A stretch of 64,000 bases of DNA, taken from positions 155,964 to 219,963 of the forward strand of contig JADGBR010000001.1 of assembly GCA_015231405.1 (NCBI GenBank). The letters are read 5' to 3'. Position numbers and translations under genes: made by a program. The stretch comes from Candidatus Omnitrophota bacterium. Lineage in GTDB: Bacteria > Omnitrophota > Gorgyraeia > Tantalellales > Tantalellaceae. The notes beneath the pieces are model-generated. The model saw only the letters and a list, made by a program, of their open reading frames with translations, did not search any database and was not told the origin of the DNA. This document shows positions 12,531 to 53,886 of this stretch, one piece after another (the stretch's first letter is position 1; each line of letters starts with the position of its first letter).

Positions 12531-12538
12531 GAGAATAG

Positions 12539-12954: not shown

Positions 12955-12955
12955 A

Positions 12956-13078
12956 AACGTAGGGGCGCCGTTCCACCGCCCTCGTGTCTTTTTCTATATT
13001 GATCCCAATTCAAAATAATATCATTCCCGGATAGATCATATTCTTTTAGGGGCGGGGGGACGGCGCCCCTACGTTTCA
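12956..13078 (+). repeat. long inverted repeat (~28-bp arms) enclosing a ~65-bp AT-rich segment
   Basis: aaaacgtaggggcgccgttccaccgccc (12956-12983) versus ggggcggggggacggcgcccctacgttt (13050-13077). The arms are near-perfect reverse complements. Confidence 0.5.
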
Positions 13079-13144
13079 TTTTAAATTCAACAATGTAATC
13101 ATATCTATTTGACAAGTAAATTTACTTGTTATATACTTGTATTA

Positions 13145-18907: not shown

Positions 18908-18936
18908 TTGACAAAACAGCAAATATTTTTTACAAT
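18908..18936 (+). promoter_or_regulatory. consensus sigma-70-type promoter (TTGACA-17-TACAAT) giving a leaderless ECF-sigma transcript
   Basis: TTGACA 18908-18913, 17-nt spacer, TACAAT 18931-18936. ATG 18943 lies 6 nt after the -10 with no SD. Confidence 0.5.
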
Positions 18937-18942
18937 TAGAGT

Positions 18943-19584
18943 ATGGAAACAGATGAATTAATACGGAAATGTCTGGAAAAAGACAGCGGTGCCTGGGATG
19001 AATTTGTCAGAAAATATCAAAGTCTCGTCCATAGGAGCGTAAATTATAAACTTCGGGCACTAAACGTCAGAACGGGCGCATGTGAATTCAAAGATATCGC
19101 ACAGGATATTTTTCTTAAGATCTGGGAGTCTCAAAAATTGAGGGACATAAAGGATATAAAATGCCTGCCGAGCTGGCTCGCAATAGTTTCCATAAATTTC
19201 ACGGCCAATTATTGCAGGACAAAGAGGTTCGGAATAATTAACAAGGCGGTTTCTTTCGATGATGAGATAGATATTAAAGGGAGTACCGTTCGCCTTAGTT
19301 CGATCATCCCCGATAAGCAGAGGAACATTAATTCGTTTATCGAGAATAAAGAGCTTTTGGAGATAATGAAGAAAGAGATTAACTCTTTTTCGCTAAAAAA
19401 ACAGCTTGTACTAAAGTTCCATCTGTATGAAAATAAAAAACACAAAGAAATATCTCGTGTTATGAATTTACCGAGAAATACGGTCACGACTATGATAAAC
19501 AGGGCTAAGGGCCAGTTGTCGGAAAGGCTTAACGGCTATTTAAAAGAGAGCGGTAAAGACAAAGAGCTACTGGAAAGGATATAG
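18943..19584 (+). CDS. ECF-type RNA polymerase sigma-70 family factor
   Basis: Region 2 (DIAQDIFLKIWES) and region 4 HTH (NLPRNTVTTMINRAKGQL). Confidence 0.75.
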   Translation: METDELIRKCLEKDSGAWDEFVRKYQSLVHRSVNYKLRALNVRTGACEFKDIAQDIFLKIWESQKLRDIKDIKCLPSWLAIVSINFTANYCRTKRFGIINKAVSFDDEIDIKGSTVRLSSIIPDKQRNINSFIENKELLEIMKKEINSFSLKKQLVLKFHLYENKKHKEISRVMNLPRNTVTTMINRAKGQLSERLNGYLKESGKDKELLERI

Positions 19585-23603: not shown

Positions 23604-23842
23604 TAATGTATTGTACGTTTCCTGCCCTCTGGATCAAGCAGTAAAATTATTGTCCGGTGATCAGGACACTTCGAAAAACTTTTGCCGCTGACGGTATTAA
23701 AGCCTTCATGATGCCGGTTGATGATATAACCTGAACGGTTCTTCAGCCATCATAGTTAGCCACATAAAAAGTTGCAAAAGAGATTTTATTCAGCCATAGT
23801 TAAGGTAATAAACAGATTAAAAATATTAACTACCATCTTACT

Positions 23843-29800: not shown

Positions 29801-32800
29801 ATGACATTGCGCGACCTTAAGGCCTTGATCGCCGCTTTCAGTTATTATGTAAAGGCCGGAATGGATAGTAAACCCGCATTCAACGCCGCCTTTGAGCTTG
29901 TGTATCTGGCTCAATTCAGTGACTTGGTCAAAATCCAGATACTAAAGAAGCTTGAAGAAGTATTGGATGGCAACGCGAAAGACAGGATAGACTTCAATGC
30001 CGGACGCTTCGAGGACAAGCCGATGGATATGGCTGGCATGATAAAGAGAGGCCCAATGGCCCAGTCCGAACAAAAAGTTATAAAACAGATAAAAGACCTG
30101 ATCGGGATAAATAAAAATCCGCTTCTTCTACTCGAACCGGGATCAAGGGAAAAAGAGATCATATCCGCTTTTTCCGAAAAAGAAGGATATGAGCTATTCC
30201 ACTGCGATAGCCACCCGGAGATGACCAGTTTGGACCTTATCGGAGGCACGTTCCCGTTCTTTGAGGAAAAGGGCATGGAGGCGGAAAGGTTAAGTGAATT
30301 GCCTGGTTTTATCGGGAGGCATCTTGTCCGGAAAGAAGATATAGATAAACCGGGTGAAAAAAAGCTTCTTGTTATACACAATATTGACGCCCTTCATGAA
30401 AAAGTCAGGACAGTCCTAAATAATTTTCTGCTTAAAGGTTCCATCGATATCCAGGATCAAATGGGAAGGACCAGGACGATGTATCTGCCGAAAAATGTCA
30501 GGATAATGGCGGCCTGCTCGGAAAAGACGGGTGAGGAAATATCCGGGGCGTTCTGGAACAGGTTCCAGAAAATAGATGTGCCGCCGATAAGTTATATGGA
30601 GAACGGTAATTCGGAGCTGCTCGAGCTCCTTTTGTATGATTCGGGCCTGTCGGAATACGGCGCGATGGGGGAAATGGTATCCAGATATATCCAGTATCTG
30701 CACTCTTTCACTGACCGGTTGGACGCGGAGAGCGAGTGGCCTTCGGGGAAAAAGTACGCATTCACGGTAAAAGAGGCTTTGCTTCTCGGGAAATACGTGA
30801 AGATAGCGATAGACGACGCGAAAAAAGACCCAGAGGAAATAGACGTAGCTAAGGCGAAAGAGATGGTCATCAGGGAAGCTTATAACCTGTACGGGGGTAA
30901 GATAAAAGAACATCAAAGCGACCTGGATTTCTTCGAGCAGAACGTTCTTAAGATCATATTCGATCACAGGCTGGTAAAGAATTTATCGGGTACTGTCGTG
31001 AAGGAAAAAGGCGTCGTTACGGAACTGGCCGGGGTTAAATTGCCGCACGGGACAAAAGGTAAAAGGCTTGAGGATATAGATCCCGAATACAGGCTTATTC
31101 TCGTAAAAGAAATAGTCAATACGATGGCTGGCATCGTCAGGGCCTGGAGATCCGGGAAAGTGGTCTCCATGACCGGTGAAACGGGAACCGCGAAAACCAC
31201 GATGGGGGTTTTTCTTTCTCAGCTTATGTTCGGGGAAGAGGCCGGAGAGGACAGCTACTACATATTTTCGACCCACGGCGCGTCGAAAGCAAGAGACCTT
31301 GAATATCAGCTGAGGATGACCGAGGAAGGCAAGTACCGGCTGGAAATACAGGAATTCATTAAGAAGATAGAGGAAGGGAATAAGGTCATCATAATCGACG
31401 AGGCGAACATGAGGCCGGAGATGCTCTGGGCAATTAACGCCATAGCGAGGGGCGAGAAGGAGATAACGCTTCAGATCCCGGGCGAAAAACAATACAAGGT
31501 AAGGGTAGGCGACAACGTCAATATCATAATGACTATGAACCCCACAAGCTATAAAGACAGGAAAGATGTTCCCGGGATACTTAAGGAGAATGTCGTGAAC
31601 CTGTGGTCCAGCCTCAATTACTCGGAAGCCGAGATGGACATGATACTTAAGGGGATGATGGGAGCGATGGAGCGAAAACTGCTGGGTAAGAAAGGGAAAG
31701 TGTCACAGGAAGCGGAAACAAGCGAGGAGGATAAGGCAATCCCGGCAAAAGACGGCGTTTTTGAGGATTTCAGGGGGTCGATCGATCTTGAGAAATTCCT
31801 GGAAAGGGTATACGAGTTCGGACATGACGAGGCTCTCGAAAAAACGCCGCAGGAAGTGATCTCAAATTTGGAAAAAGAACTGCTTGAAAGAGATGACGTC
31901 AAGAAGCGCATGGCGAGGATCGAAACGACGGTCAAGAACCTTACACGGGGCATATCTGTCGAATATTCAACATATTATCCGTGGGGGCAGTCGAACGAGG
32001 CTGGGAAGTTACTTATTCCTCTCGATCAGCTGGTCAATCCTCTTCTTACGGACGACATGATAATCTCCTTCATAATGCACGAAATAAGGCATTGGAGATA
32101 TTCGCCGACCCCTAAAGATATTATGGGGGATATCGCGGAGGATCTTGTGAAAACTATCCCTAAAGCGAGGGAGATCCTGTCTTCGAGCGATTTTAATTAT
32201 TATTGGAATGTCCTTGAAGATCACAGGATAAACGCGGTGCGAACTCGTTTTGACGGCGAGAATTCATATATAGATACCTTTATAGGAACGAACTTTACTG
32301 ATCCCGAACAATCTCTAAAAATACAGGAAAAGCTGGAGACTTTCATAGATGGAGGAGAATACATAAGGGCTTTCTGGGAATATATACTATACTACGGATA
32401 TGCGCGGGAACATACACCCGGATTTCCAAGGTATCCGAAGGCCTTAAGGGACGCGATCAATAAAATAACGGACGGCGGGGATAATTCGGTCTTGTACAGA
32501 GCGGTATTGTCGGGCGATGTCCATCCGGACTACGATGCGCTGGTAATTGATAAGAACGCCCCTGAGAACAGGGCGAAGATGATAAAAGCCGCCATTAACA
32601 GTTTGAAGGTCATAATAGGCGAAATACATCCGGTATTTCTTGAAGTCGTTGAATATGAAAGAAAAGAGCGGGAGAAAAAGCATAAAGACAAGGATAAAGG
32701 CGAAAAAACGAAAAAAGAGGCGAAAGCACCGAAAGAAGCTAAAGAAGCGAAACAACGGCCCATAGAGGATCTTTCCGAAGGACCTCTTACCCAGGCTCCT

Positions 32801-35800
32801 TTAAGCCCGCCGCCGGGTGCGATGCCAAATAATGATAAGGGTGTTGAGACGCCCGTTGATATGCCTAAGCCCTGGGATGAAAGGCCACAAACGGATATAC
32901 CGTTAACAGGCACCTCCGGTTCCGGAGCTTCCGATGAGAAAGGCCGGGGGGAACAAGGTGAAAGTGCTCCGGGTGACGATATGTCAGGGGAAGAATATCC
33001 TTCGGGAATGGATAAGGGAGCCGGACCGGTGATGCCAGGTTCTGATGCTTTTTCCGGAAAAACCATTAACTATGATCCCGTACAATGGAAAGAGATGACT
33101 AAAGAGGAGCTCGAGAGATTGATAGAGAAAAGTAAAAGGATAAGAGGTGCTACGGAGTTACCGGAGGAATCATCTAATGATTTTCTGGCCGAGATAAGGA
33201 GGATAGTCGAAAATCCGCCTGAAACACCTCATGAGTTTGAAGGGTACAGGAAATTCTACAGGGAATTTGTAGAACAGGTTAAATATTCGCACAATATGGC
33301 TATTACGGATGAATTATTCGAATACTATGGGCATCTCATTAAAAACGCCAAGACACTCCGGGATGTTATCGACCGGCTGCCGGAAGAGATCAAAAAGCTG
33401 ATGGACGAAACACGGGAACTGTTCGAGGAGATCGAGGAGGACATCGAGCAGGAAAACAGCGAAACGGGTATGCAAATCGATATTGAGGCGAAATGGAGCA
33501 GAAAAAAAGAACAATTCATAGAAAATATTATAAAGGATAGGAAAAGATCGGATATAGCTGTAGGGGTTACGCTCGTCCCTGATATGTGGGCGAGCGGGGC
33601 ATATGAAGAGATACTTGCCGTGTTCCTTCAGACTTTCAATAAGCTGGAGAGAAGGAAGGTCGAGTACAGCGTGAGTTTTAGCGATGTCTCATATTCTTTG
33701 CGGGAAGGCATAGCGTTCAACGAAAAGGTAAAGAAAATGGAACAGCTCGAGCAAAGGTACAGAGAAATGCTTCTGTACTTGGCTTTGACCAATCACGGTA
33801 ATAATCAACAGTCTTCAAAGGTGGGTATCGGTAGATTCACGCCGCTTAAGCTGGTCCTAAGCATAATGCAGAAATATTCCGGAGTTAAAAAAACGAATAA
33901 GATCGAGTTTATCGTTACGGATGGGTCGATCGAGGAAACGTCCTGTTATATGTTCTTCCCGTCGGAAACCGGGAAAGGGTATCTGGGGAGCGACGATATC
34001 TTTCTAAGACCGAGCGGCGTTATCGGCCCGTATTACGATATGCCGGGTTGTACCAAAGACCTGGTAATGGAAGCGACAGAGGCGCTCAATTATCTGGCGA
34101 ATTATGAGCATAATTTAAGGATATGGAAGGCGTGCATACAAAGGGCGAAAGATGGCGGCATGACAGACGCGGAATTAAAAAGAAAAGGGCTGACCGAAGA
34201 TGAGTTCCCGGGATTGCACGTACTTAAAAATGATCCGGACCCAAGAAGCATGGGAGCTCGATTGGCGAAGGAATATGGCTTCAGATTCGACCAATGGGGT
34301 TATAACTGGCCCAGCGTGACGGAAAAAGTGAGCATGAGTGACAGGATAAAGGCCATAATAAGAGCCAGCGACCTTGTCACGCGCCTAAGAATGAAAGCCG
34401 GTATAATATTGCCGGCATCCGAGGAATATCTTGAAAGAGCGAGACAGGCTCCGGGCGGGGATAAGGCTAAATTCGGTATGCCTGTTCCGACCCGGAAATT
34501 AGCCGACGCTTTAAGTGACGCGAAGTCGAAAGGGATAGATATTATAGGGGTGGGAACTAAAAAGGAATACAAGGGAGTTCAGCTATTCGATTCATGGATC
34601 TATATCGACGGATATTCACCGCATGTGGTCACTTTCCTCATGCTGGAGCTGTCCAACTATAAAAAGAAACACCCGGGAGATTTTCCGAAAGGTGATCTTT
34701 TTGAGAACTTGCCGGGGTTAAGGGAAAAAGCCGATAAAATGCAAAAAGAGACGGCCAGTGCCGCTAAGATGCCCGGCATGAAAGCTCCCTCGGAAAATAG
34801 CATAGAAATGAACCTTCTTGATCTTGAGAATAACTCTGCGCCGGTACAGCATGAGGAAATACTGATCAAACGAAAGATCGAATTAGGAGGCGACGGGCGC
34901 GAGTTAAAAGTCGCATTCAGGGTGCTTGACGAAAATGTCGCTGACAAAGTCAAGAGTGTAGCTATGAGCCCGAGCAAGGCTTTCTTCGATATTGGCGGAG
35001 ATACCTTTTTTGCCGTGAGGAGAGAAATGCCGGACGGTTCCATAAATATATTTCTGACTAAAAAGTCGATGGCCAGGCTTATCGTCGACGAAAAGGCTCT
35101 CATGGCCCTTGCTATGCACGAAGTTTACGATACCGGCGAGAAGGAAGGGCCCGGTTCGCATAAATGGGCGTGGGATAAAGTCAAAAAGGAGAACCCCGAA
35201 GGTATGAGCTCTCTCCTTAGATTCATGATCGACAATATGGATGAGGCCCAAGTTAAAGCTCTTGCATCCGAATATGAAGAAGACCTTTCGGGAAGAAAAG
35301 CGTCGGGAGAGTGGGGGCCATTCGAGGAAGATATTCACTCATATTGCCTGGGAAGGCTCGATGCGATCAGGACTTCAACGGAAACGGATAAAAATTCGAT
35401 ACTTAAATATGAATTATCAGGAACATCGGAAGGCCGCCTGGAAAAAATAAGGTGTGAGTCCGGCATTGCTCCTGAAACGAATTCAACGGAGAAGGCGAGA
35501 TCCGAGATGCTGGACGTTTACGGTAAACTCCTGTCCGGAGTTTACAAGAATACGCATAATAAGGAGAAATGTTATGATTTCATATTGAGCGCTGTCCCCA
35601 CGGCAAAGGACGATGAAGGGCAACCGGTCGATTACGCCGAAAGCGTCCTATCAGGGCTCATGGGTAAATTAAGGAGCCAGGGAGACGCCGCGGTAGCAAA
35701 AGCTCAGATAGGGAATATAACGTCCAGGTATACGATGGGAGCTTTAGCGGCAAAGAGCATGGTCGAGAGTATTGTCGAGCTTTCAAAAAGCGTTCCCGAT

Positions 35801-36277
35801 GGGAGGATACACTGTTCGATCAGCGCAAAAATACTTAAGGAGCTCGAAGAGCTGAACGCAGGTGAACAATTCATTGTAGGAACTGTAAAAGACTTTTTGA
35901 CGGGACATGTGATGCTCGACATTATAACCGATACCGCTACGACGGAGAAGGAAGAGACCGTATACCCGCTTTCCTTCGCCAAGTGCAAGGCATTAGGCCT
36001 CGCCAGGTTCAACATGGCGCATGTGGGGGCGATGGTGGATAAGAACGACGACCTGTATAAAAGTTCATTAAGGCTTGTAGGCCTCGCGATCGCGTATTTG
36101 ACCAATAACACGGACAACGCGGATAATATCGTCAAATCGCTGGAGGAGGCTTCGGGAAAAGATAAAGAATTCTATAAAAGGGTTTTCGAGCTTGTGCTGC
36201 CCGAAGTGGCTAAAATAAACATAAACGAGATTAACAATATATTTCAGGCCGAAGCGGAGGTATTCGCGTCTCTCTAA
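23843..36277 (+). CDS. giant midasin-like AAA+ protein (4144 aa): signal/anchor peptide, TraB/GumN-like domain, six tandem AAA_5 modules (alternating degenerate/intact), helical HExxH region, acidic/Pro-rich disordered linker, VWA-like segment, ~700 aa unknown
   Basis: Single uninterrupted ORF. Signal-like N-terminus MKKFNTLILLISFTINQMVIPVKA. TraB/GumN motifs (IINITDAHCN about aa 57; MVTGGFHKDNLKGLFEKAGFNYIEV about aa 452). Walker A boxes GPTGSGKT (nt 27578), GPPGGGKT (nt 29168), GETGTAKT (nt 31175), each with an hhhhDE Walker B and a TNP/MNP sensor-1 (AAA_5 hallmark). Three interleaved AAA-like modules lacking Walker A (about nt 26700, 28500, 30120). HEIRH at nt 32078. K/E- then P/G/D/E-rich low-complexity at 32660-33070. 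FIVTDGSIEE (VWA TDG motif) at nt 33907. Confidence 0.85.
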   Translation: MKKFNTLILLISFTINQMVIPVKADVAKLIDPGTFYIPGKIGEIMTLVKGNSGKTIINITDAHCNYSAQDNICKILQYLTSNETPEIVFLEGGSGKYDFSVFDKINDTEIKERIVEILLKEGRLSGAEKYGIGSNNSIRLEGLEEKDLYDKNLGYYRGSLTMKDTVQPYLDKLRGILAKIKKNLYSEEMIKIDDMFDRYESGELNIKDLIVLISGLLAQKSADLLAYKNIVGLAGIVNDEKRIDFERAEKEMENVMDLLTKTLPGNERTKLLEQLTGFKDGDIDKEMFYGYLFKQLRLSSADMSNYENLRKYSEYISGYENIDKGELAREIRRARTDLFEKSFTGDDQKELFALVNYLVAVDKLINAKLVKEEFNDYIKMASRVDLDGVKAFIAKNYPIDGDHLNMSEAQNEYPMIVDLMEKFYKCSFERDVVFLGKIDKYMTVNKMKSAVMVTGGFHKDNLKGLFEKAGFNYIEVMPVIKKTDVANNYFKLLSGERSDLEGFIDTAVSLLPGNSFLALRSVFSEMGISDIKAGNETVLKIAMLEKLLNGEEFTIRTKQGWWIVISPEGVKSVNANVFKSDTGTIGGQKITAEVFRPEARFDANVSEADIVLVDGDELNHIQQELWIDGLGKEMGYKALRDVIDTEPFIDKLYEFGLEEQHVEYLKLNYINTDKLRVWNDKDMRMPVDGHPGAEGVVYLTSHLFNANDTRGAVLAFLHELGGAYKNGELKRTHADNRQLDDAYASGDRDLIKKKAIEIVEFASGGTGMARGEKRDYADKVDMEAAKPVTIEDFETLTSDHQKENVIRELKTIHAEIMSMAEEYKERTGDPKYLTITMREQKRFLKTFESVYYKRIKETGDESLSYAHALNTAKQGYYDIFPESFVREEIGDVNVHDAPLPEELDALHSEVYRKLSRAIDTDFPSLFNCPVDTLGELDDALDIYVRNHSGIGKVEKVVCTPDTDSTQLIGCLLPVDPKDRKGAEKVRFEMGVIYRMVEHARDDPEHTHILRLDQLEALSPKVWVILNQFLLTDEMTVPEADPTKGKAVRKLKRPKNLKIITSINKGLDDSAFYDRFLRKTIDSPSDEVLGAYIMSHYGLPEWAAKDMVSLKNNNEAVNNGQLFIILDYIKGRLSESESKGEKALKDIIDQEVGLYLGNLKPLKPGDGYETKVEFKDDKLMFDGVELAINDGLRAKIKQAVKSQDDIEAIKKAIKETVSISMTRDVARALSAIARNYRYGNKVIQLEGPTGSGKTFLAESLAKMLNIPFYGEPFHASSKQTKLLGSFVPDPTGEFYLDTDTQFLRHIQDGGVIALSELNACEKDGYARFGWLMVPFASGEDTLELNQYPLPGEGGEMFRSVKRHKDSMIIIDTNPSDAYKSRAALPPMLNAYTPKVWVEGKYTMEELKEISADFIESKEVSGDEKGFFTDVLSELHFKVQEELERTDPKLSRGREHIVTMRELTRTSKMIRSENKNKDKGQNYYDAAMLYYGSAFKNEADRELVKGYIKEILSGQGIAVSCLKERDDNYFLRTSILNTKNSTMLSLPAMDNPFDVIQEALGEEKNVEVEKYNANYFTDDFGLLGGYVPNEGSKYNEEMAFRMVDGIILKNIKKALKEKDKTFILAFENFHYLRPKMAVALNSILQDRVYYSIAKEGGVKTKERIEIPDNLKFVSTASNEVEFQMSLAEQSRWVRIFGSGDKSRAPPEERQAKVYADADELRKAYKKDRSQLDPNIHPEPVTDGKGLLVPTKEMMEAESRMVDAMDDDKVILLEGPPGGGKTEYALDIANRLGLKSYLYSAHANSHLRDLIGSYVQDKDGKYVLTAREKDGHFMAPFLECLKNGGVFIIDEGAIGVNAQAIISWLTGIARGDKEIAINEHLGMDEPLRIKRHENFHLVITTNPVEETPDRMKIPIEVLERSERIWVTDDICRKSYDSITEFFYDLYAGNDPKMAEHKKNYTVAALSSLHIKMKEILSAQGFVNDPDRHLMTLRDLKALIAAFSYYVKAGMDSKPAFNAAFELVYLAQFSDLVKIQILKKLEEVLDGNAKDRIDFNAGRFEDKPMDMAGMIKRGPMAQSEQKVIKQIKDLIGINKNPLLLLEPGSREKEIISAFSEKEGYELFHCDSHPEMTSLDLIGGTFPFFEEKGMEAERLSELPGFIGRHLVRKEDIDKPGEKKLLVIHNIDALHEKVRTVLNNFLLKGSIDIQDQMGRTRTMYLPKNVRIMAACSEKTGEEISGAFWNRFQKIDVPPISYMENGNSELLELLLYDSGLSEYGAMGEMVSRYIQYLHSFTDRLDAESEWPSGKKYAFTVKEALLLGKYVKIAIDDAKKDPEEIDVAKAKEMVIREAYNLYGGKIKEHQSDLDFFEQNVLKIIFDHRLVKNLSGTVVKEKGVVTELAGVKLPHGTKGKRLEDIDPEYRLILVKEIVNTMAGIVRAWRSGKVVSMTGETGTAKTTMGVFLSQLMFGEEAGEDSYYIFSTHGASKARDLEYQLRMTEEGKYRLEIQEFIKKIEEGNKVIIIDEANMRPEMLWAINAIARGEKEITLQIPGEKQYKVRVGDNVNIIMTMNPTSYKDRKDVPGILKENVVNLWSSLNYSEAEMDMILKGMMGAMERKLLGKKGKVSQEAETSEEDKAIPAKDGVFEDFRGSIDLEKFLERVYEFGHDEALEKTPQEVISNLEKELLERDDVKKRMARIETTVKNLTRGISVEYSTYYPWGQSNEAGKLLIPLDQLVNPLLTDDMIISFIMHEIRHWRYSPTPKDIMGDIAEDLVKTIPKAREILSSSDFNYYWNVLEDHRINAVRTRFDGENSYIDTFIGTNFTDPEQSLKIQEKLETFIDGGEYIRAFWEYILYYGYAREHTPGFPRYPKALRDAINKITDGGDNSVLYRAVLSGDVHPDYDALVIDKNAPENRAKMIKAAINSLKVIIGEIHPVFLEVVEYERKEREKKHKDKDKGEKTKKEAKAPKEAKEAKQRPIEDLSEGPLTQAPLSPPPGAMPNNDKGVETPVDMPKPWDERPQTDIPLTGTSGSGASDEKGRGEQGESAPGDDMSGEEYPSGMDKGAGPVMPGSDAFSGKTINYDPVQWKEMTKEELERLIEKSKRIRGATELPEESSNDFLAEIRRIVENPPETPHEFEGYRKFYREFVEQVKYSHNMAITDELFEYYGHLIKNAKTLRDVIDRLPEEIKKLMDETRELFEEIEEDIEQENSETGMQIDIEAKWSRKKEQFIENIIKDRKRSDIAVGVTLVPDMWASGAYEEILAVFLQTFNKLERRKVEYSVSFSDVSYSLREGIAFNEKVKKMEQLEQRYREMLLYLALTNHGNNQQSSKVGIGRFTPLKLVLSIMQKYSGVKKTNKIEFIVTDGSIEETSCYMFFPSETGKGYLGSDDIFLRPSGVIGPYYDMPGCTKDLVMEATEALNYLANYEHNLRIWKACIQRAKDGGMTDAELKRKGLTEDEFPGLHVLKNDPDPRSMGARLAKEYGFRFDQWGYNWPSVTEKVSMSDRIKAIIRASDLVTRLRMKAGIILPASEEYLERARQAPGGDKAKFGMPVPTRKLADALSDAKSKGIDIIGVGTKKEYKGVQLFDSWIYIDGYSPHVVTFLMLELSNYKKKHPGDFPKGDLFENLPGLREKADKMQKETASAAKMPGMKAPSENSIEMNLLDLENNSAPVQHEEILIKRKIELGGDGRELKVAFRVLDENVADKVKSVAMSPSKAFFDIGGDTFFAVRREMPDGSINIFLTKKSMARLIVDEKALMALAMHEVYDTGEKEGPGSHKWAWDKVKKENPEGMSSLLRFMIDNMDEAQVKALASEYEEDLSGRKASGEWGPFEEDIHSYCLGRLDAIRTSTETDKNSILKYELSGTSEGRLEKIRCESGIAPETNSTEKARSEMLDVYGKLLSGVYKNTHNKEKCYDFILSAVPTAKDDEGQPVDYAESVLSGLMGKLRSQGDAAVAKAQIGNITSRYTMGALAAKSMVESIVELSKSVPDGRIHCSISAKILKELEELNAGEQFIVGTVKDFLTGHVMLDIITDTATTEKEETVYPLSFAKCKALGLARFNMAHVGAMVDKNDDLYKSSLRLVGLAIAYLTNNTDNADNIVKSLEEASGKDKEFYKRVFELVLPEVAKININEINNIFQAEAEVFASL

Positions 36278-37809
36278 CCCCAGAGGTTGCGGTCCAGGCA
36301 CCTGTATCCTATCGCTTCGGAAACGTTATGCGTGTTGATGACCTCCGAGCCTTCCATGTCGGCTATCGTTCGTGATAATTTCAGTATCTTGTCGTAAGCC
36401 CTGGCCGAAAGACCCATTTCAAGTATTACCGTTTTCAGGATATATTCCGCTTCTTTTGAGAGAACCGAGTGCTTGTCGAGCTCTTTCGGTGACATGTAAG
36501 CGTTGATAGCGAGGTGGCAGCTTTTTTCCGCGAACCGCTCTCGTTGTATAGCCCTCGCCTTAAGCACTCTTTGTTTAACTCGTGAAGTCGTTTCGCCCGA
36601 GCGTTTTCCTGAAAGTTGTTCGTAGTTGAGCCTTGGGACTTCCAGGTGTATATCAATGCGGTCAAGTAATGGGCCGGATATTTTAGACAGATATTTCTGT
36701 ATCTGTCCGGGATTACACCTGCACTCCTTTTTCGGGTCAGTTAGGTTCCCGCACGGGCAGGGGTTCATAGCGGCAATTAGTATGAACCTGGAGGGGTATT
36801 TGATCGAGCGTTCGGCCCGTGATATGGAGATCTCGCCTGATTCAAGGGGTTGTCTTAGCGTTTCGATGACGTCGCGCCTGTATTCCGGAAATTCGTCAAG
36901 GAATAGGACTCCGTTGTGGGCGAGGCTTATCTCCCCGGGGCGTGTATGAACCCCTCCTCCGGCCATGGCGGCATAAGAGATCGTGTGATGCGGGGCCCTA
37001 AAGGGGCGTTCGTCGACGAGGTCCTCATTCTTGAGTTCGCCCGCGATACTGTATATCTTCGTCGTTTCAAGCGACTCTTCATATGAGAGGTCCGGAAGCA
37101 GATAAGGGAACCTTTTCGCTAGCATGCTTTTACCAGAACCCGGCGGGCCAATTAAAAGGATGTTGTGGTTGCCCGAGGCGGCAATCTCAAGCCCTCTTTT
37201 TACGTGTTCCTGTCCTTTAACGTCTGAAAGGTCCCACAAATCTGACGGATTCTTCAGGGATGATATATTTTGGCGGGGTTTGACGGGTTCCATCGGTTCC
37301 GCGCCTGTCACATGCCTGATTATCTCATCAAGGGAACGGGCGCCGAAGATGATCATCCCATCGACATGTGAAGCTTCCCGGGAGTTAGAGACCGGCAGAA
37401 TAAAAGTAGGGAACCGGTTTTTTAGGGATATTGCCAGCGGAAGAGCGCCTTTAAAGGAACAAAGTTTACCCGTGAGCGACAGTTCCCCGCAAAAAAGGAT
37501 GTTATCCATTAGAGTCCCGTCGATCTGTTCCGAAGCGGCCAGTATTCCCAGAGCTATTGGGAGATCGAAACCGGAGCCTTCTTTTTTCATTCCTGCAGGA
37601 GCAAGATTGATAGTTATTTTTTTAGCCGGAAAAGAAAAACCCGAATTTCTGATAGCGGATCTTATCCTGGCGCGGCTTTCCTTAATAGAGCTGTCAGGGA
37701 GCCCAATTATTGAAAAGGAGGGAAGCCCCGAAGCCGTTACATCCGTTTCGACTGTTACCTGCTGTGATTCCATTCCTATCATGCAACCCGAATTGACTTT
37801 AGATATCAT
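36274..37809 (-). CDS. comM: Mg-chelatase-like AAA+ ATPase ComM/YifB family
   Basis: N-terminal Lon-protease-like/ChlI domain (GLPDSSIKESRARIRSAI, GSGFDLPIALGILAAS). AAA+ with Walker A GPPGSGKS. C-terminal Mg_chelatase_C. Convergent 4-bp overlap with the giant gene. Confidence 0.85.
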   Translation of the reverse strand: MISKVNSGCMIGMESQQVTVETDVTASGLPSFSIIGLPDSSIKESRARIRSAIRNSGFSFPAKKITINLAPAGMKKEGSGFDLPIALGILAASEQIDGTLMDNILFCGELSLTGKLCSFKGALPLAISLKNRFPTFILPVSNSREASHVDGMIIFGARSLDEIIRHVTGAEPMEPVKPRQNISSLKNPSDLWDLSDVKGQEHVKRGLEIAASGNHNILLIGPPGSGKSMLAKRFPYLLPDLSYEESLETTKIYSIAGELKNEDLVDERPFRAPHHTISYAAMAGGGVHTRPGEISLAHNGVLFLDEFPEYRRDVIETLRQPLESGEISISRAERSIKYPSRFILIAAMNPCPCGNLTDPKKECRCNPGQIQKYLSKISGPLLDRIDIHLEVPRLNYEQLSGKRSGETTSRVKQRVLKARAIQRERFAEKSCHLAINAYMSPKELDKHSVLSKEAEYILKTVILEMGLSARAYDKILKLSRTIADMEGSEVINTHNVSEAIGYRCLDRNLWG

Positions 37810-37935
37810 TATAGCCTCCTTATTTTTAGCTTTAAGCTTTCAGCCTTAAGTCTTCAGCTTGAATGTTTGTTAAGAAGCTGACAGCTGATAGCTGATAGCC
37901 CTATATTAGAGACACAGTTTTCAGCGAAAATGTTT

Positions 37936-38060
37936 CAAAAAAAATGAAAAAATCTTTAATATTGAAGAAATGAGGCCGGTGTGCGAAAATTACGAACGAG
38001 TTGGAATTTATTGTTTTCAAGCTTAATTTGGGTAAAAGGGTCTTGTATGTCAAAAGGGAA
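37936..38060 (+). repeat. degenerate duplicate of the upstream/5' segment of gene 40925 (copy A)
   Basis: 37936-37998 is about 90% identical to 40852-40913. A weaker, indel-containing match continues into 41040 (ttggatctatgttttcatattgg versus ttggaatttattgttttcaagcttaatttgg; tgtggatatcaaaaagga versus tgtatgtcaaaaggga). Confidence 0.6.
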
Positions 38061-38110
38061 TTTATCAGTCCTGGTCTTAATTATCCGAAAGCTGGGGGCG
38101 TAATAGAAAA

Positions 38111-40834
38111 ATGTTAATACGAGACAAAGTGACCATGCTTTTTCTAGGCTTATTTTTGGGCTGTGCCGATCTTCACTCTGCGGAAATGGCAGACGATACG
38201 AAGATGGATATGGGACAGGTATCGAGGTCCATTTATGAAGATGTCAAAAAAGAGATAGAAAAAGAATCGGCACAAGGATATAGCGATATCTCCTCTTATA
38301 TCGATGCCGGACTACTATACAGGGAAGAAGGTGAGATCGGGAAAGCCGCTGAAGCCTTTGATAAAGCAAAAAGCGTTAACCCTTTAGATCCGAGGTCATA
38401 TTACTTCAAGATGGTCGTTTCCGGGGAAAAGGAAAAATATAATAATATGATCGAGGGCTTATCCGATAGAATAGATAAAGAGCCTGTTAATGCTGACCTA
38501 TATGTTGAGAGGGGTGTCTTATATGGATTGAACGGGTTAAAGGGGAATGCACTGGAGGATTTTAAAAAGGCGATCGAGATAGATAACACCCATGCCGATG
38601 CGTTTATGCAAAGGGGTATATGTCATGCCCGGCTGGGTGACTATAAACAAGCGCTTAAAGACCTCGATATGAGCATTAACTTGGACCCGGGTAAAACGGC
38701 CTATTATTTGTATCGTGGTTTTACAAAGGAAGAATTAGGGGATCATGACGGGGCTATCGGTGATTATTCCAGGGGCATAGAGATCGATCCGGATCTGCCT
38801 TATATATATGTGGATAGGGCGATTGTATACGGGAAGAAAGGTCAATATCAGGAATCCCTGAGAGATCTCGCGATAAGCAGGAAGCTTGATCCGGAAAATG
38901 TCTTTACATTGCTAACTTACGGCGTGATTCTGCTTGTTAAAAAAGACTATGCGGACGCACTCCCTGTTTTTAATGAAATTCTTGAAAAGGCTCCGGGATA
39001 TGATCTGGCTTACTATCATCGGGGGGCGGTTTATTCCTTCCTCGGTGAATACGGTAAGGCAATGGATGATTTCAGCAGATCATTGGAACTAGTACCCATG
39101 ATCGATGATACAAAAAAGTTCCGTTCAATTGTCCGCAATGCGAGAGGTTCCCTGTATGAATTGCAAGGTGAAATTGACAAGGCGGTTATTGACTATACAG
39201 AAGCCGAAGAGTTATGGCCTCGAGCCCCAAAACGAATGTTGACCATAGGGATAATAAACGACAATACATACAAATTTGAACTTGCCTTATCTGAAGTCAA
39301 CAACAGAATATATGAGGATCCCCAGAATCCGGCGCATTATATTTTTAAAGCGATATTGTATCTTGATACGGGCAATGCCGAAGAGGCCTTGACGCAGCTT
39401 GGCAATGCGGCGCAATTAATTTCGAAAGACCCTGTCCTTTATTATCTGCGATCGCGCGCATATGCAATGATGAACGATATGGGTAACGCCATTTCAGTTT
39501 TACAGGAAGCTGTCGGGTTTTTTCCGAAACACCCGTTACTACGAACAACGCTGGGCGCCGCTTATGCAGTAGCGAGGCAACCTAAAAAGGCATTAGCGGA
39601 ATTCGGCAAGGCGATTGAACTGGACGCTGAACTTGTTTGGGCATATTTTGAGAGAGGGACATTATATCTTGAGTTGAGCAGGCATGATGAAGGTATGGAT
39701 GATTTTACCGAGGCGTTGAGGATCGATCCTGATTGCGCTGAAGCGCTGCTCAATAGGGGCTGTTTGTACAACAGGGTGAAGAAATACAAACTGGCCATAC
39801 AGGATCTGACACGGTATATAAGGTTGCGCCCGAAATCCGCTTATGGAGCCTACTTTAACAGAGGCAACTCCTACTGGCATCTGGGCGAAAAAGAACAGGC
39901 CCTCCGGGACTATACAAAGGCGCTTGAGTTCGATATATCCGCCGGACCTGACGATACATATGTTAAAACCCTCCAAAATAGAGGTGTGTTATACAATGAG
40001 ATCGGGCAGCCGGAAAAAGGACTAGCGGACCTGAATAAGGCTATCAGCGCGTCGCCGGGCAACAAGCATCTATATCTCAATAGGGGGAATAGTTTTCAAG
40101 GTTTGGGCCGAATGGAAGAGGCATTGAAAGATCTTACAAAAGCTATTGAGTTGGATCCGGAGTTCGGCGAGGCGTATGGGAATAGGGGTATTGTTTATGA
40201 TCATTTGGGGCAGGCGAAAAAAGCTTTGGCTGATTACGAAAAGGCGTTAGGGTTTACTCCTGATAAAGGGAAAGTCTACTATAATGTCGCGTTAGTATAT
40301 GCTAATTCAGGGGATAATCAAAAAGCGATCGATCTTTATACGAAAGCTCTCGAGGCGGACCCCCCTTTCATCGACGCCTATATCAACAGGGGTGTCGGAT
40401 ACAGGATGATAGGGCAAATAGATAAGGCATTCGATGATTTTAATAAAGCGATACTATTGTCACCTGAAAGGCCGGAGTACTATTATAGCCGAGGGTCAGA
40501 ATACTGTGGTATCGGGGAGATAGACAAAGGGATGCGGGACCTTGCCAAAGCAATCGAGCTCAAACCCGACTATTTTGAGGCCTATTATAACCGGGCAAGT
40601 TACTGTTTTGATCTAGGTGAATATGGGCAAGCGATCCGGGACACCGATAAAGCGATCAGTATAGCCCCTCAATTGGGTGTCGCGTATGATCTGAAAGGAA
40701 AAGCTTTGGAAAAGCTGGGGAAGGACAAAGAGGCTCTCTCAGTTTACAAGTCGTTCCTGAATAATGTGAAAGACCTGGATGAAGAGGACAAGCGGAATAT
40801 CAGAGCATGGATCAAACGTCTTGAGAATAAGTGA
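38111..40834 (+). CDS. large TPR-repeat lipoprotein
   Basis: Lipobox-like LFLGLFLGCADL. At least 15 canonical TPR units (W-LG-Y-A-F-A-P pattern) across 907 aa. Confidence 0.8.
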   Translation: MLIRDKVTMLFLGLFLGCADLHSAEMADDTKMDMGQVSRSIYEDVKKEIEKESAQGYSDISSYIDAGLLYREEGEIGKAAEAFDKAKSVNPLDPRSYYFKMVVSGEKEKYNNMIEGLSDRIDKEPVNADLYVERGVLYGLNGLKGNALEDFKKAIEIDNTHADAFMQRGICHARLGDYKQALKDLDMSINLDPGKTAYYLYRGFTKEELGDHDGAIGDYSRGIEIDPDLPYIYVDRAIVYGKKGQYQESLRDLAISRKLDPENVFTLLTYGVILLVKKDYADALPVFNEILEKAPGYDLAYYHRGAVYSFLGEYGKAMDDFSRSLELVPMIDDTKKFRSIVRNARGSLYELQGEIDKAVIDYTEAEELWPRAPKRMLTIGIINDNTYKFELALSEVNNRIYEDPQNPAHYIFKAILYLDTGNAEEALTQLGNAAQLISKDPVLYYLRSRAYAMMNDMGNAISVLQEAVGFFPKHPLLRTTLGAAYAVARQPKKALAEFGKAIELDAELVWAYFERGTLYLELSRHDEGMDDFTEALRIDPDCAEALLNRGCLYNRVKKYKLAIQDLTRYIRLRPKSAYGAYFNRGNSYWHLGEKEQALRDYTKALEFDISAGPDDTYVKTLQNRGVLYNEIGQPEKGLADLNKAISASPGNKHLYLNRGNSFQGLGRMEEALKDLTKAIELDPEFGEAYGNRGIVYDHLGQAKKALADYEKALGFTPDKGKVYYNVALVYANSGDNQKAIDLYTKALEADPPFIDAYINRGVGYRMIGQIDKAFDDFNKAILLSPERPEYYYSRGSEYCGIGEIDKGMRDLAKAIELKPDYFEAYYNRASYCFDLGEYGQAIRDTDKAISIAPQLGVAYDLKGKALEKLGKDKEALSVYKSFLNNVKDLDEEDKRNIRAWIKRLENK

Positions 40835-40851
40835 TGGAGTGCGGCCGAGCG

Positions 40852-40913
40852 TAAATATTCCCAAAAAAATGAAAGATCTTTCATATTGAAGAAATGAATC
40901 CGGTGTGCGAAAA
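40852..40913 (+). repeat. conserved ~62-bp upstream element (copy B), 12 nt before the ATG of gene 40925
   Basis: ccaaaaaaatgaaagatctttcatattgaagaaatgaatccggtgtgcgaaaattacgaacga; see copy A. Confidence 0.6.
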
Positions 40914-40924
40914 TTACGAACGAT

Positions 40925-41326
40925 ATGATACCGTTAAAGGAAAAAAATATTTGGATCTATGTTTTCATATTGGTCTGGGCCTCAATATGGGGGCGTAACC
41001 TTTTTGTGGATATCAAAAAGGATTGGCCGGATACGAAAAAACTTTTCGGACGTCCAGTCGAGGACAAGTGGGAATATGTTTTCGGCGGTGACTTATATCT
41101 CTTCCTGCAAAACGTAAAAAAGAACGTTCCAGAGGATTCATCCTTCACTCTGATAGACGGGCTCGAACATTTTAAACGGGTAAGGGCCGAGTATTACCTT
41201 TATCCGAGAACGGTAAGTCCCGTTGCCGGATATATATGCGTTTACGGCAGGGAATATACAGTAGAAGAGGGGTGGAAAACTCTTTATAACCGCGACCGAA
41301 AGATGATATTAAGGAAAATGACGTGA
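40925..41326 (+). CDS. hypothetical membrane-anchored protein
   Basis: N-terminal TM IWIYVFILVWASIWG. Stop overlaps the next start. Confidence 0.4.
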   Translation: MIPLKEKNIWIYVFILVWASIWGRNLFVDIKKDWPDTKKLFGRPVEDKWEYVFGGDLYLFLQNVKKNVPEDSSFTLIDGLEHFKRVRAEYYLYPRTVSPVAGYICVYGREYTVEEGWKTLYNRDRKMILRKMT

Positions 41327-42726
41327 CTCTGATAAAAGTCCTGTTGGCTTTGTATCTGGCCCTGGTATCCGGTTACAGTATTCTGGCGATCTTCAGGAAA
41401 AGGCGGATATTTTCTTCGATATCGGGGGCCGCGTTAGCGTTCGGTCTCGGTATAGGGGCAGTTTCCGTCATACAGGTCATGTTTCTCTCCTTGTCCATTA
41501 AGATCACTCCGCTAACCATGATAGCGGCTTTTTTTGTTGTTTCGTTATCTACATTGCCGATCACGTTGAAAGAAAGAAAGCTCCCGGGGGAGAAGGAGAG
41601 ATCCCGAAAACCCGGAATTTTGCCTTTGATCATCGCACTCTTACTCGCCGTACAATTGGTTTGGATAATAATAAAGACATTTAATTATCCGATAATCGAT
41701 GATGACGGGGTATGGCAATGGGGATTGAAAGCAAAAATAATATACTATTCGAACGAGAGGGGCGAAAGCCTTAAAGAGATAGCGCCGAAAATGAGCTTAA
41801 CTTCTAATGGTAACCATCCATTGCTTATACCCCTCGCCGAACATTACGTCAATGTGTTCGCGGGGGAGTGGAACGACCTCTATTTTAAGGCCATCTTCCC
41901 TCTGTTCTATTTAGCCCTTCTCGGGATATTTTACGGTTATTTGAGGAGGTTTACAGGGGTTAATTACGCGTCAGTATGCGCTTTTCTTCTTGCCTCATTG
42001 CCGTTCATGGCGAAACTCGCTACATGGGGAGTTCCGGACATAGCTCTTGCTTATTACCATTTTGCGGGTTTTGTTCTCATTCTTCTATGGATGAAGGACA
42101 GGGATACGGGGCTTTTAGTTTTATCCGCTATATTTTCTGCCCTTTCAGTATGGACGAAGAACGAAGGATACCCTTCAGCTGTTATAAACGCGGCGGTTGT
42201 CATTTTGTTCCTTTTTACCGGGGGGAGGGACGTCGGAGCGGTGAAAATGAAAAAAACGGCGGTTGTATTTTTGTACACAGCGGCGGTCATGGCCGCTATA
42301 CTACTTGTATGGTGTTACCAGAAGTCCACCGGAGTGTCGGACCTCATAGTCAATGGCCGTACATTCATCCTCGAAAGGGTGAATGAAAATACAGGGAGGA
42401 TACCGTATATCTTTAATCAGTTCCAGAAACAGATGTTTGGCGCTGTGAATAAATGGGACCTAGTGGGCTACTTATTTGTGTTTTCTATCTTCTATCAACT
42501 TATAAAGAGGCAGAAGGGGCCCGAAGGATACATTTTATTCGTCATCATTTTTAAGATCGCGGTATATGCCGGCGTATATTATATTTCGCCGCTTGATGTG
42601 AAAGACCATATCGACACATCACTATACAGAATATATCTGCATATAGTTCCGTTCATCCTCTTGTATTCGGCCCTTGCTTTAAAGGATATAGCGGCCGGAC
42701 TTACTGATATTCCTCATCCTCGATAG
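41323..42726 (+). CDS. polytopic membrane protein, possibly ArnT/PMT-like (GT39/GT83-type) glycosyltransferase
   Basis: 467 aa, about 11-12 predicted TM helices with periplasmic loops. Architecture is reminiscent of GT-C glycosyltransferases; no catalytic motif verified. Confidence 0.4.
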   Translation: MTLIKVLLALYLALVSGYSILAIFRKRRIFSSISGAALAFGLGIGAVSVIQVMFLSLSIKITPLTMIAAFFVVSLSTLPITLKERKLPGEKERSRKPGILPLIIALLLAVQLVWIIIKTFNYPIIDDDGVWQWGLKAKIIYYSNERGESLKEIAPKMSLTSNGNHPLLIPLAEHYVNVFAGEWNDLYFKAIFPLFYLALLGIFYGYLRRFTGVNYASVCAFLLASLPFMAKLATWGVPDIALAYYHFAGFVLILLWMKDRDTGLLVLSAIFSALSVWTKNEGYPSAVINAAVVILFLFTGGRDVGAVKMKKTAVVFLYTAAVMAAILLVWCYQKSTGVSDLIVNGRTFILERVNENTGRIPYIFNQFQKQMFGAVNKWDLVGYLFVFSIFYQLIKRQKGPEGYILFVIIFKIAVYAGVYYISPLDVKDHIDTSLYRIYLHIVPFILLYSALALKDIAAGLTDIPHPR

Positions 42727-43084
42727 CGTTCCTGATATATTTAAGAATTTTGGGTTTTCCTTTTGCATCTATCAATATTCCGATAGCGTCTATCCGGCAT
42801 TGCGAATCGAACAGCTCCTTTTCGGACATGTAATATTTACAGCTGTTAATAATATGACGTTCTTTTCTTTTGTCGATAGAATGGAACGGGTCGCCATATA
42901 TGTCTGTGATCCGGGTCTTGACCTCGATAAAGACAGTGGTGTTATTCTTAGCCGCGATTATGTCTAACTCCCCATAGGGGGTCCGGAAATTTGTATCAAT
43001 TATCCGGAACCCCCTGGAGACGAGGTAGTCGCGCGCAAGCGATTCTCCGATCGCTCCTGTTTCGCAATTAGCGCGGCTGTCTAT
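42701..43084 (-). CDS. YraN-family (UPF0102) endonuclease-like protein; no canonical start codon
   Basis: Translation ...GESLARDYLVSRGFRIIDTNFRTPYGELDIIAAKNNTTVFIEVKTR... matches the YraN core. The frame opens immediately after the spoVG TGA and has no in-frame ATG/GTG/TTG before the conserved N-terminus. Confidence 0.5.
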   Translation of the reverse strand: MDSRANCETGAIGESLARDYLVSRGFRIIDTNFRTPYGELDIIAAKNNTTVFIEVKTRITDIYGDPFHSIDKRKERHIINSCKYYMSEKELFDSQCRIDAIGILIDAKGKPKILKYIRNAIEDEEYQ

Positions 43085-43345
43085 TCAATTTTCGGACCCT
43101 TTGAATTCTTCCAGTACAAAAGACTGAAGCTCCTTACGCGCTTCCTGTGACAATGGGTGAAAGGTATCGTACCATTTACCGTCTTTGCCTTTTGCCTGAG
43201 GCATGGAGAGGAATAAGCCATCTTTCCCTTCAACTATCCTGAGACCCTTTACGACGTATTCGTCCATGAGCTTGATGTCGCAAAAAGCCTTGGTGCTAGC
43301 GTTGCCGTTCAATTTGTGCATCCTTTCGACCGAAACATTTTTCAT
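43085..43345 (-). CDS. spoVG: septation protein SpoVG
   Basis: Strong collinear similarity to SpoVG (KAFCDIKLMDEYVVKGLRIVEGKDGLFLSMPQ...WYDTFHPLSQEARKELQSFVLEEF). AGGAGGAGA SD upstream on the minus strand. Confidence 0.85.
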   Translation of the reverse strand: MKNVSVERMHKLNGNASTKAFCDIKLMDEYVVKGLRIVEGKDGLFLSMPQAKGKDGKWYDTFHPLSQEARKELQSFVLEEFKGSEN

Positions 43346-43467
43346 TTCTCCTCCTTTTTTTTGAAATATTTTTCAAAACATCCTACACGTATATAGACAC
43401 AGGTAACGGGAAAAATATTTCAAAAAAAGAAAAAATAATTAAAAAAGAGATAAAAAAGCGAGATGTG

Positions 43468-44181
43468 TTATCTTGCAGTAAAAGAGGCTATGGCGTCTTT
43501 TTGGGTGAGTAGGGTTATGCCGCTATTCTGGATATGATCGAGATGTGCCATAAAAATATCGATGTGAGTGAAAAAACCGTAAGGGGCGTCTCGATGGGCG
43601 CTTTTGGTGTTCTTGGCGGAAACAAGGTGAAATACCTCGATTAACCAGACATTTTTATCCAGGATCGAGTCAATATACCCATTCAATGTCGGTAGGTCAG
43701 TGGAGGTGGTTATGGCTGTACCTGTTATCGAGAACGGGTCATTCACAGGTAAAGGATTTACCGAAAAAGTATCAGAAGTGATCCTTGAGGATCGATAATG
43801 CTCCGAAGCCAGCCCCCTCAGTTCGGCGTTATTATTTCGCTCGATAAAAGGGAACACGAAAGATACCGGGGTTATCCCGAGACTATTTTGGAATACTACC
43901 TTAGGCGAGCTGAGCTGGTCAAGGACGGCCTGTTTCCCGCCAGTATTAAAAAGGCTTAGAAGATTTACATGCGAACCGGTATGAGCCGCAATTTCGTGTC
44001 CGTTAGATTGAAGATACAGGATATCATTTTTATCCATGACCGGACGGTTTTCAAGAATGCCGGATATGTGATCGGAAGGTATAGCGAAAGTGGCTTTGAC
44101 GCCTCTATTAATGAGATGTTCGGCTGTGTTTGAATAAGTATCTTTATACCCGTCATCAAAAGTTATGGTTAATATCGACAC
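43468..44181 (-). CDS. polysaccharide deacetylase (NodB/CE4)
   Basis: ITFDDGYKDTY, HEIAAHTGSHVNL motifs. Confidence 0.7.
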   Translation of the reverse strand: MSILTITFDDGYKDTYSNTAEHLINRGVKATFAIPSDHISGILENRPVMDKNDILYLQSNGHEIAAHTGSHVNLLSLFNTGGKQAVLDQLSSPKVVFQNSLGITPVSFVFPFIERNNNAELRGLASEHYRSSRITSDTFSVNPLPVNDPFSITGTAITTSTDLPTLNGYIDSILDKNVWLIEVFHLVSAKNTKSAHRDAPYGFFTHIDIFMAHLDHIQNSGITLLTQKDAIASFTAR

Positions 44182-44354
44182 GCCAGCATTATAGCAGAAG
44201 ATTTAAACAATAAAGTTAATTATTTATTGGTTATTAATTCCGTAGGTGTGAGGCCGTAAATACGGTTTTTAAAACGCCACTTTTATACTATAATACCATT
44301 CGACCTTCGACCATCCGCCTTCAACCTTTAAACGATCGAAGGGCAGTTGATTTT

Positions 44355-53767: not shown

Positions 53768-53774
53768 GTTGGGT

Positions 53775-53856
53775 TATAGTTGCTATGTTTAGGTGTTAGG
53801 TGTTGTGTTCAGATAATATTAACATAACCTAACATCTAAACATAGCAACTATAACC
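53775..53856 (+). repeat. near-perfect 30-bp-arm inverted repeat (very stable hairpin) between the aminotransferase gene and mcsA
   Basis: gttatagttgctatgtttaggtgttaggtg (53775-53804) versus cataacctaacatctaaacatagcaactataac (53824-53856). The reverse complement differs at 2 positions. 19-nt AT-rich loop containing ataatat. Confidence 0.6.
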
Positions 53857-53886
53857 TATATATTCCGAACAAGATAGGAGACGAAC

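Follow-up and report, generated by a model that had tools for sequence, protein, structure and literature searches.

A duplicated promoter-like segment next to the TPR lipoprotein gene

We analyzed a 64,000-nt stretch (the window) of contig JADGBR010000001.1 from a Candidatus Omnitrophota bacterium and found a short direct repeat whose two copies, A and B, lie upstream of two consecutive genes on the same strand, encoding a tetratricopeptide repeat (TPR) lipoprotein and an N-terminally anchored protein of 133 aa, respectively. We lean towards reading the two copies as paralogous sigma-70-type promoters that originated from a short DNA duplication, with promoter activity predicted from the sequence. 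The best explanation of the comparisons described below is that the duplicated segment would comprise a promoter only and no coding sequence. On this reading, the element is a small and fairly ordinary promoter duplication rather than a new class of element. The two copies are located as follows:

37923..37999, + strand: repeat copy A, 77 nt, located in the intergenic region of the divergent comM/yifB (- strand) and TPR lipoprotein (+ strand) genes, ending 111 nt before the ATG at 38111
40848..40923, + strand: repeat copy B, 76 nt, starting 14 nt past the TPR stop codon (40832-40834) and ending 1 nt before the ATG at 40925

The best local alignment paired 37923-37999 with 40848-40923 and showed 68 identical columns out of 77 with one 1-nt gap, corresponding to a divergence of 12%. 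The gapless part recovered by the repeat search was 66 nt long with 86% identity (37934-37999 versus 40858-40923). Within the window, the blastn E-value of the pair was 1.8e-16, and two 22-mers, GGTGTGCGAAAATTACGAACGA and ATCTTTMATATTGAAGAAATGA, each occurred exactly twice in the 64 kb, as opposed to an expectation of 0.00 to 0.01 from shuffled sequences. The duplicated element of ~62 bp noticed in a preliminary description of this DNA is therefore genuine and lies far above chance. The two copies are the only ones in the window. They are adjacent and in the same orientation, with a start-to-start spacing of 2924 nt, and they bracket exactly one gene.

The boundaries of the repeat were sharp. 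Upstream of the repeat, no similarity was detected (p=0.87). On the right side, copy B had been placed at 40852-40913, 12 nt before the ATG, but these coordinates are ~9 nt off, since the last base of the repeat is 40923 and a single nt separates it from the ATG at 40925. It had also been proposed that a weaker, indel-rich similarity extends over the first ~120 bp of the coding region and that the flank of copy A contains the decayed counterpart. Semi-global alignment of 38000-38120 with 40924-41044 revealed no significant DNA similarity past the repeat (p=0.40 against dinucleotide shuffles), and the three-frame translation of the copy A flank showed no significant similarity to the N-terminus of the 133-aa protein (p=0.09). 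The only common feature downstream was an 11-mer, TGGGGGCGTAA (38093-38103 and 40988-40998), with a local-alignment shuffle p of ~0.03. Hence the duplication does not include the 5' segment of a gene, because the similarity stops abruptly 1 nt before the start codon.

Promoter-like architecture of the repeat

Both copies contain an A-rich upstream tract, the -35 hexamer TTGAAG, a 17-bp spacer and the extended -10 element TGcGAAAAT. A palindrome was additionally present in copy B. These candidate elements are:

37962..37990, + strand: candidate sigma-70 core promoter of copy A, with -35 TTGAAG at 37962-37967, 17 bp, TG at 37982-37983 and -10 GAAAAT at 37985-37990
40886..40914, + strand: candidate sigma-70 core promoter of copy B, with -35 TTGAAG at 40886-40891, 17 bp, TGc and -10 GAAAAT at 40909-40914
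40870..40883, no strand assigned: perfect 14-bp palindrome TGAAAGATCTTTCA in copy B, upstream of the -35; putative, possibly a regulator site

Compared with TTGACA and TATAAT, TTGAAG and GAAAAT each matched at 4/6 positions; A2 and T6 of the -10 were present, and a TG lay one base upstream of it. The spacer of 17 bp in both copies falls within 17 +/- 1 bp. Given this -35/-10 layout, transcription should start within the final few bases of the repeat, at ~37996-37999 in copy A and at ~40920-40923 in copy B (the last 3-4 bases in each case), and the predicted 5' untranslated region (UTR) at copy B would be 2-5 nt long. The TTGAAG-N17-TGcGAAAAT core and the A-rich upstream tract are similar to those of sigma-70 promoters with an extended -10 and an A-tract or UP-like region, whereas the weak hexamer match (8/12) differs from them, and the start is a predicted one. 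To our knowledge, no promoter consensus has been established experimentally for Omnitrophota. Sigma-54 and extracytoplasmic function (ECF)-type readings of the core were also considered, by eye only, and no consensus fitted.

The distribution of the differences between the copies was examined as well. Seven of the nine differences are located in the A-rich upstream half and two in the core half, both in the spacer (GG versus AT). The -35, the -10 and the bases up to the predicted start are 100% identical, and the copies have identical blocks of 15 nt and 24 nt in common. A concentration of differences upstream and in the spacer would be a promoter-like pattern, though it did not reach significance (p=0.07).

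Several observations weigh against a promoter. The hexamer match is weak, with ~350 equally good sites on both strands of the window, and the core of copies A and B was not listed by the sigma-70 consensus scan. A better-scoring sigma-70 match, CTGACA-18-TATATT (37878-37907), is located upstream of copy A and could be the true promoter of the TPR gene. In addition, the -10 of copy B ends 10 nt before the ATG, which is at the long end of the range for a strict leaderless start. Furthermore, the uneven spread of differences outside the core was not significant (Fisher p=0.07), and a neutral recent duplication is compatible with this spread.

The upstream match at 37878-37907 would place copy A inside a 5' UTR, and the element might then be transcribed and act at the RNA level as a cis-regulatory leader, a ribosome standby site, a small RNA or a short open reading frame (ORF). 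The same ATG-initiated stretch of 10 codons, M(R/N)PVCENYER..., indeed occurs in both copies, at 37970 and 40894. We consider such an action extremely unlikely, however. Rfam gave no match at the gathering threshold in the whole window and nothing relevant at E<=5 in 37700-41400. The fold z-scores of the element were +0.57 and +0.90 without a significant hairpin, and the two-sequence consensus structure reached -3 kcal/mol with 0 covarying pairs. By these results, the element corresponds to no known RNA family and to no structured RNA, and they disfavor the regulatory RNA motif suggested in the preliminary description. The distance to the downstream start codon also differs between the copies, at 111 nt for copy A as opposed to 1 nt for copy B. 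As for the short ORF, 74 nt of it would lie out of frame within the verified 133-aa ORF, and after codon 10 the versions in the two copies diverge (18 versus 34 codons).

A hairpin sequestering a Shine-Dalgarno sequence, or a FourU-like thermometer, formed by UAUGUUUUCA and UGGGGGCGUA in both downstream regions was rejected. The copy B region is coding sequence for an N-terminal helix, and the fold energies were no better than those of shuffles (z=+0.39 and -0.87).

The 133-aa gene and its start codon

Copy B ends directly in front of the following gene:

40925..41326, + strand: gene of the 133-aa N-terminally anchored protein, uncharacterised family, with ATG at 40925 and without a Shine-Dalgarno sequence

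The NCBI record of this gene (HQL30_00905) comprises only 106 aa with a GTG start at 41006. A full HMMER scan identified 86 remote homologues, mostly of 130-145 aa, with alignments beginning at query residue 5-14. In the multiple alignment of the family, M1 aligned, and W18 and W22 in the N-terminal hydrophobic helix were nearly invariant. The AlphaFold (AF2) model, with a predicted local distance difference test (pLDDT) score of 89.7, showed a long helix at residues 4-40. The N-termini of the homologues, the two tryptophan residues and the modeled helix together indicate that ATG 40925 is the true start and that the NCBI call is too short. With this start, TGGGGGCGTAA on the copy B side is coding sequence (IWGRN). 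The 133-aa protein had no match in Pfam or NCBIfam, and a fold search with its model gave no PDB match at E<0.1.

No GGAG, GAGG or AGGA was found in the 20 nt before ATG 40925; AGGAGG-type sites are common elsewhere in the window. Canonical sigma-70 promoters of several other genes are placed with the -10 ending 6-9 nt before start codons without a Shine-Dalgarno sequence. These are an ECF sigma factor gene at 18943 (TTGACA-17-TACAAT-6-ATG at 18908-18945), a DoxX gene at 2065 (TTGATT-16-TAAAAT-9-ATG at 2028-2067), a polysaccharide deacetylase gene (ORF 43468-44181, - strand, start at 44181; TATAAT-6-GTG at 44182-44195 on the minus strand) and a gene for a protein of 4144 aa (possible TACCAT-6-ATG at 23809-23845). 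Further canonical promoters in the window are TTGACA-17-TACAAT at 9213 and TTGACT-17-TATAAT near 49380. Leaderless genes thus seem to be common in this Omnitrophota genome, judging from these layouts, and copy B (TTGAAG-17-GAAAAT-10-ATG plus the TG) would fit the same arrangement, its hexamers being weaker and its gap longer.

Genes that are leaderless and have a promoter of their own within a cluster are known from Actinobacteria, Deinococcus and archaea. The 133-aa gene resembles them in its ATG without a Shine-Dalgarno sequence and in the -10-like hexamer a few bases upstream, as do several other genes in the window, but the gap between the -10 and the ATG at copy B is 10 nt instead of ~6-7 nt. 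Because of this gap, the predicted leader of 2-5 nt is likelier than a strict +1 AUG. The promoter-plus-leader cassette of the preliminary description holds in one part only: a promoter-like segment is duplicated upstream of two consecutive genes on the same strand, whereas a leader is not part of it, copy B being essentially leaderless. No terminator-like site was found between the TPR stop codon and copy B, so read-through transcripts from copy A are likely, and these would be expected to carry ATG 40925 internally, with no ribosome-binding site in front of it.

Genes of the locus and the 4.9-kb insertion

The other genes and regions of the locus are:

36274-37809, - strand: gene of a YifB/ComM Mg-chelatase-like ATPase
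37810..42700, no strand assigned: lineage-specific block of ~4.9 kb between yraN and comM, with both repeat copies and three + strand genes
38000..38110, + strand: leader from copy A to the TPR start codon, unique 111 nt without a canonical Shine-Dalgarno sequence, with one 11-mer as its sole counterpart at copy B
38111..40834, + strand: TPR-repeat lipoprotein gene, 907 aa, N-terminus MLIRDKVTMLFLGLFLGC with a lipobox-like LGC, between the two repeat copies
41323..42726, + strand: gene of a 467-aa multi-pass membrane protein; its start codon, GTG, overlaps the stop of the 133-aa gene
42701-43081, - strand: yraN/UPF0102
43085-43345, - strand: spoVG

The 467-aa protein itself had no match in Pfam or NCBIfam. 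Its detectable relatives carry PMT_2/PMT domains, by which it appears to be distantly related to the PMT_2/ArnT-like GT-C glycosyltransferases. In the 133-aa family, one homologue carries a fused GT2 glycosyltransferase, and for this reason the 133-aa/467-aa pair resembles a glycosylation module. The 467-aa and ComM proteins were 100% identical to public proteins (HQL30_00910 and neighbours). The TPR protein scored above the NCBIfam cut-off for the magnetosome protein MamA (293 bits versus 200), over 8 separate stretches. The score probably arose as an artefact, by summing over TPR repeats, and would not point to a magnetosome gene.

In two lineages of related Omnitrophota (L006-L009; ComM ~65-66% identical), spoVG, UPF0102/yraN and comM are contiguous on one strand with gaps of 40-70 nt, and the relatives at ~65% ComM identity lack the TPR/133-aa/GT-C block. 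The contig of a closer relative (L005, ComM 92% identical) is 2.4 kb long and ends inside comM, short of the intergenic region. The contiguity of the three genes in the relatives indicates that 37810-42700 is a lineage-specific insertion that split the spoVG-yraN-comM operon. No integrase, transposase or other mobility gene was found in the block.

The insertion brings up another explanation, in which the arrival of the TPR gene left the repeat behind as a neutral scar with no regulatory role, or with only one copy working as a promoter. Such a scar could stem, for example, from Campbell-type (single-crossover) integration, in which a circular DNA recombined at a short common sequence, or from a tandem duplication with a later deletion. 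The bracketing of exactly one gene, the position inside a lineage-specific insertion of 4.9 kb and a spread of differences that is not significantly non-uniform (p=0.07) are all consistent with a scar. Repeats left by such events would resemble the present ones in that two copies of the same orientation surround one inserted gene in a lineage-specific block. However, the repeat here is very short (77 nt) and 12% diverged, recombinase genes are absent, the block containing no integrase or transposase gene, and the boundaries are at a promoter and a start codon. In particular, the right boundary lies within a base of a start codon that has no Shine-Dalgarno sequence and whose gene needs some promoter there, and the region from the -35 through the -10 to the start is 100% identical between the copies, as opposed to flanks that now match no better than random. 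A neutral scar is therefore unlikely in our view.

Two further features were noticed among the neighbouring genes. The UPF0102/YraN reading frame, directly after the spoVG stop codon, is intact (Pfam E=5e-24) and has no ATG, GTG or TTG in its first ~84 codons; yraN may use a non-canonical start (ATA or ATT) or be a recent pseudogene. The 4144-aa ORF (23843-36277) faces comM in convergent orientation, and the two overlap at the 3' end of comM; genes of giant size are known from Omnitrophota.

A three-copy motif and the direction of the duplication

The repeat search of the whole window also returned a family of three 44-nt copies (1990-2033, 37907-37950 and 43392-43435). On the minus strand, the motif reads TGAAAY-N17-TGTGTCTMTA, and this pattern, defined from the same sites, had 3 matches compared to 0.02 expected. 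The sites are located upstream of a ComFC-like gene (1244-1984, - strand), comM (36274-37809, - strand) and spoVG (43085-43345, - strand), and the motif carries a GAAAATGTTTC-type palindrome. One member meets the repeat studied here:

37907..37950, - strand: member of the three-copy motif upstream of comM, promoter-type motif, overlapping the left 28 nt of copy A

In a relative with 65% identity in ComM (L008), the region upstream of spoVG (1125-1175) contains TGAAAG, a GAAAATGTTTG palindrome and GTCTCTATTA at matching spacing. Owing to this similar layout, we read the three-copy motif as a conserved promoter-type element pointing leftward. It may be a common promoter, or mark a regulon, that joins competence-type genes with spoVG.

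Copy A is part of this family through its left 28 nt, which contain an intact TGAAAC box; the window and the related genome together give the family the form TGAAAY-N21-TMTAWT (spoVG, comM and comFC). The three-copy motif lies on the minus strand and belongs to other genes, whereas the A/B repeat runs 50 nt further right and serves + strand genes. At the position of TGAAAC, copy B has GGGAAT, a degenerate trace, and it lacks the TGTGTCT box. The overlap of copy A with the motif and the vestige in copy B suggest that copy A, not copy B, is the older one and that the duplication proceeded from A to B. In the preliminary description, B was implied to be the original and A its decayed derivative; this direction is probably reversed, as the left end of copy A is integral to a second conserved promoter motif. 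In the simplest reading, the comM/TPR intergenic region would be a composite divergent control region, to which the 80-nt comFC/doxX region (1985-2064) can be likened, and copy B would be a partial copy of its rightward half.

These relationships could be extended to a chain of promoter copying, in which a spoVG-type promoter was copied to restart comM after the 4.9-kb insertion and the rightward half was then recopied, by which the leaderless glycosylation pair retained a start codon at the 5' end of a transcript. In the same scenario, the palindromic box GAAAATGTTTC might tie the competence-type genes (comFC and comM) and the genes of envelope glycosylation to a single regulator. We regard this chain as a speculative and rather improbable scenario. 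If it were true, short duplications of portable promoters would be a general way for leaderless-rich genomes to tolerate gene insertion.

Two other inverted repeats were seen in connection with this motif. At 43338-43446, the -10 region of spoVG lies between the arms of a 37-nt inverted repeat (78% complementary, 35-nt gap), and the GAAAAATATTTCAAAAAAA box occurs in both orientations within this region. At 9213-9285, TTGACA-17-TACAAT is immediately followed by the inverted repeat CATATAGAC-N11-GTCTATATG, upstream of an 864-aa gene at 9304 that is paralogous to 55517-57961. This inverted repeat looks like a putative operator whose half-site is similar to the TATAGACAC box in the three-copy motif.

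Operator and dispersed-repeat readings

The conserved blocks might instead be primarily an operator for a dedicated transcription factor, either the palindrome TGAAAGATCTTTCA or the 24-mer CCGGTGTGCGAAAATTACGAACGA, that co-regulates the TPR gene and the 133-aa/GT-C genes. The 24-mer CCGGTGTGCGAAAATTACGAACGA is perfectly conserved between the copies and overlaps the -10 and the predicted start. The identical blocks of 15 nt and 24 nt and the perfect 14-bp palindrome in copy B are in line with an operator, and sequences resembling TGAAA-N4-TTTCA are over-represented in the window (14 observed versus 5 expected) and cluster near the spoVG promoter. However, the counterpart of the palindrome in copy A is the imperfect TGAAAAAATCTTTAA, shifted by 1 nt, the symmetry within CCGGTGTGCGAAAATTACGAACGA is weak, no regulator gene adjoins the block, and two copies cannot separate constraint from recency. 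An operator as the primary function thus seems quite improbable to us, although it would be compatible with the promoter reading and could be layered on it.

Alternatively, the element could be a genome-wide dispersed repeat, such as a repetitive extragenic palindromic (REP)- or miniature inverted-repeat transposable element (MITE)-like sequence or a widely reused promoter cassette, of which the window contains two copies by chance. The analysis indeed covered 64 kb, whereas the contig is at least 491 kb long, and another intergenic motif is reused three times in the window. Two copies in 64 kb that are adjacent and in the same orientation do not fit this reading well, and neither terminal inverted repeats, for which the repeat search gave none, nor a hairpin were present in the element. 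Furthermore, a scan for the exact 20-mer GGTGTGCGAAAATTACGAAC in 185,579 reference genomes and the JGI metagenome collection (the source metagenome-assembled genome is in neither) gave only chance matches in unrelated Pasteurellaceae-type sequence without flanking similarity. We therefore rate a dispersed repeat as very unlikely. An integron attC or gene cassette site was also considered and rejected, since the element does not fold back on itself and the neighbouring genes include no integrase.

Long imperfect hairpins of low complexity were observed in many intergenic regions of the window, including 4778-4977, 12531-12642, 12955-13108, 37825-37900 and 53768-53886. One example, GGTTATAGTTGCTATGTTTAGGTGTTAGGTG..., has 35-nt arms that are 91% complementary, and AGCTGATAGCTGATAGC-type units lie upstream of comM. 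They could be terminators or a genome-specific class of hairpin repeats.

Proposed function and implications

The model that we infer combines promoter activity, the predicted transcription starts, leaderless translation, co-regulation and duplication from A to B. Copy A would drive a TPR lipoprotein transcript with a leader of ~112 nt. From copy B, an mRNA with no leader or almost none would be made, encoding the 133-aa protein and, translationally coupled to it, the GT-C-like glycosyltransferase. A start codon with no Shine-Dalgarno sequence in front of it would need to lie at the 5' end of the transcript. With the TPR gene between the promoter and the 133-aa gene, a second copy of the promoter would be required to keep the 133-aa gene expressed, and as a side effect all three envelope or glycosylation genes would come under the same promoter sequence. 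The co-regulation of the TPR lipoprotein gene with the 133-aa/GT-C pair, put forward in the preliminary description, can reasonably be expected from a duplicated promoter-like segment.

The start codon of the 133-aa gene is corrected here relative to NCBI HQL30_00905. If the proposed function is true, the locus would represent a natural case of the constraint imposed by leaderless translation, in which a gene without a Shine-Dalgarno sequence that is pushed down an operon must have its promoter copied along. The TPR lipoprotein, the small anchored protein and the GT-C-like glycosyltransferase would then be expressed together, which would hint at a module for envelope glycosylation in a phylum without cultured members.

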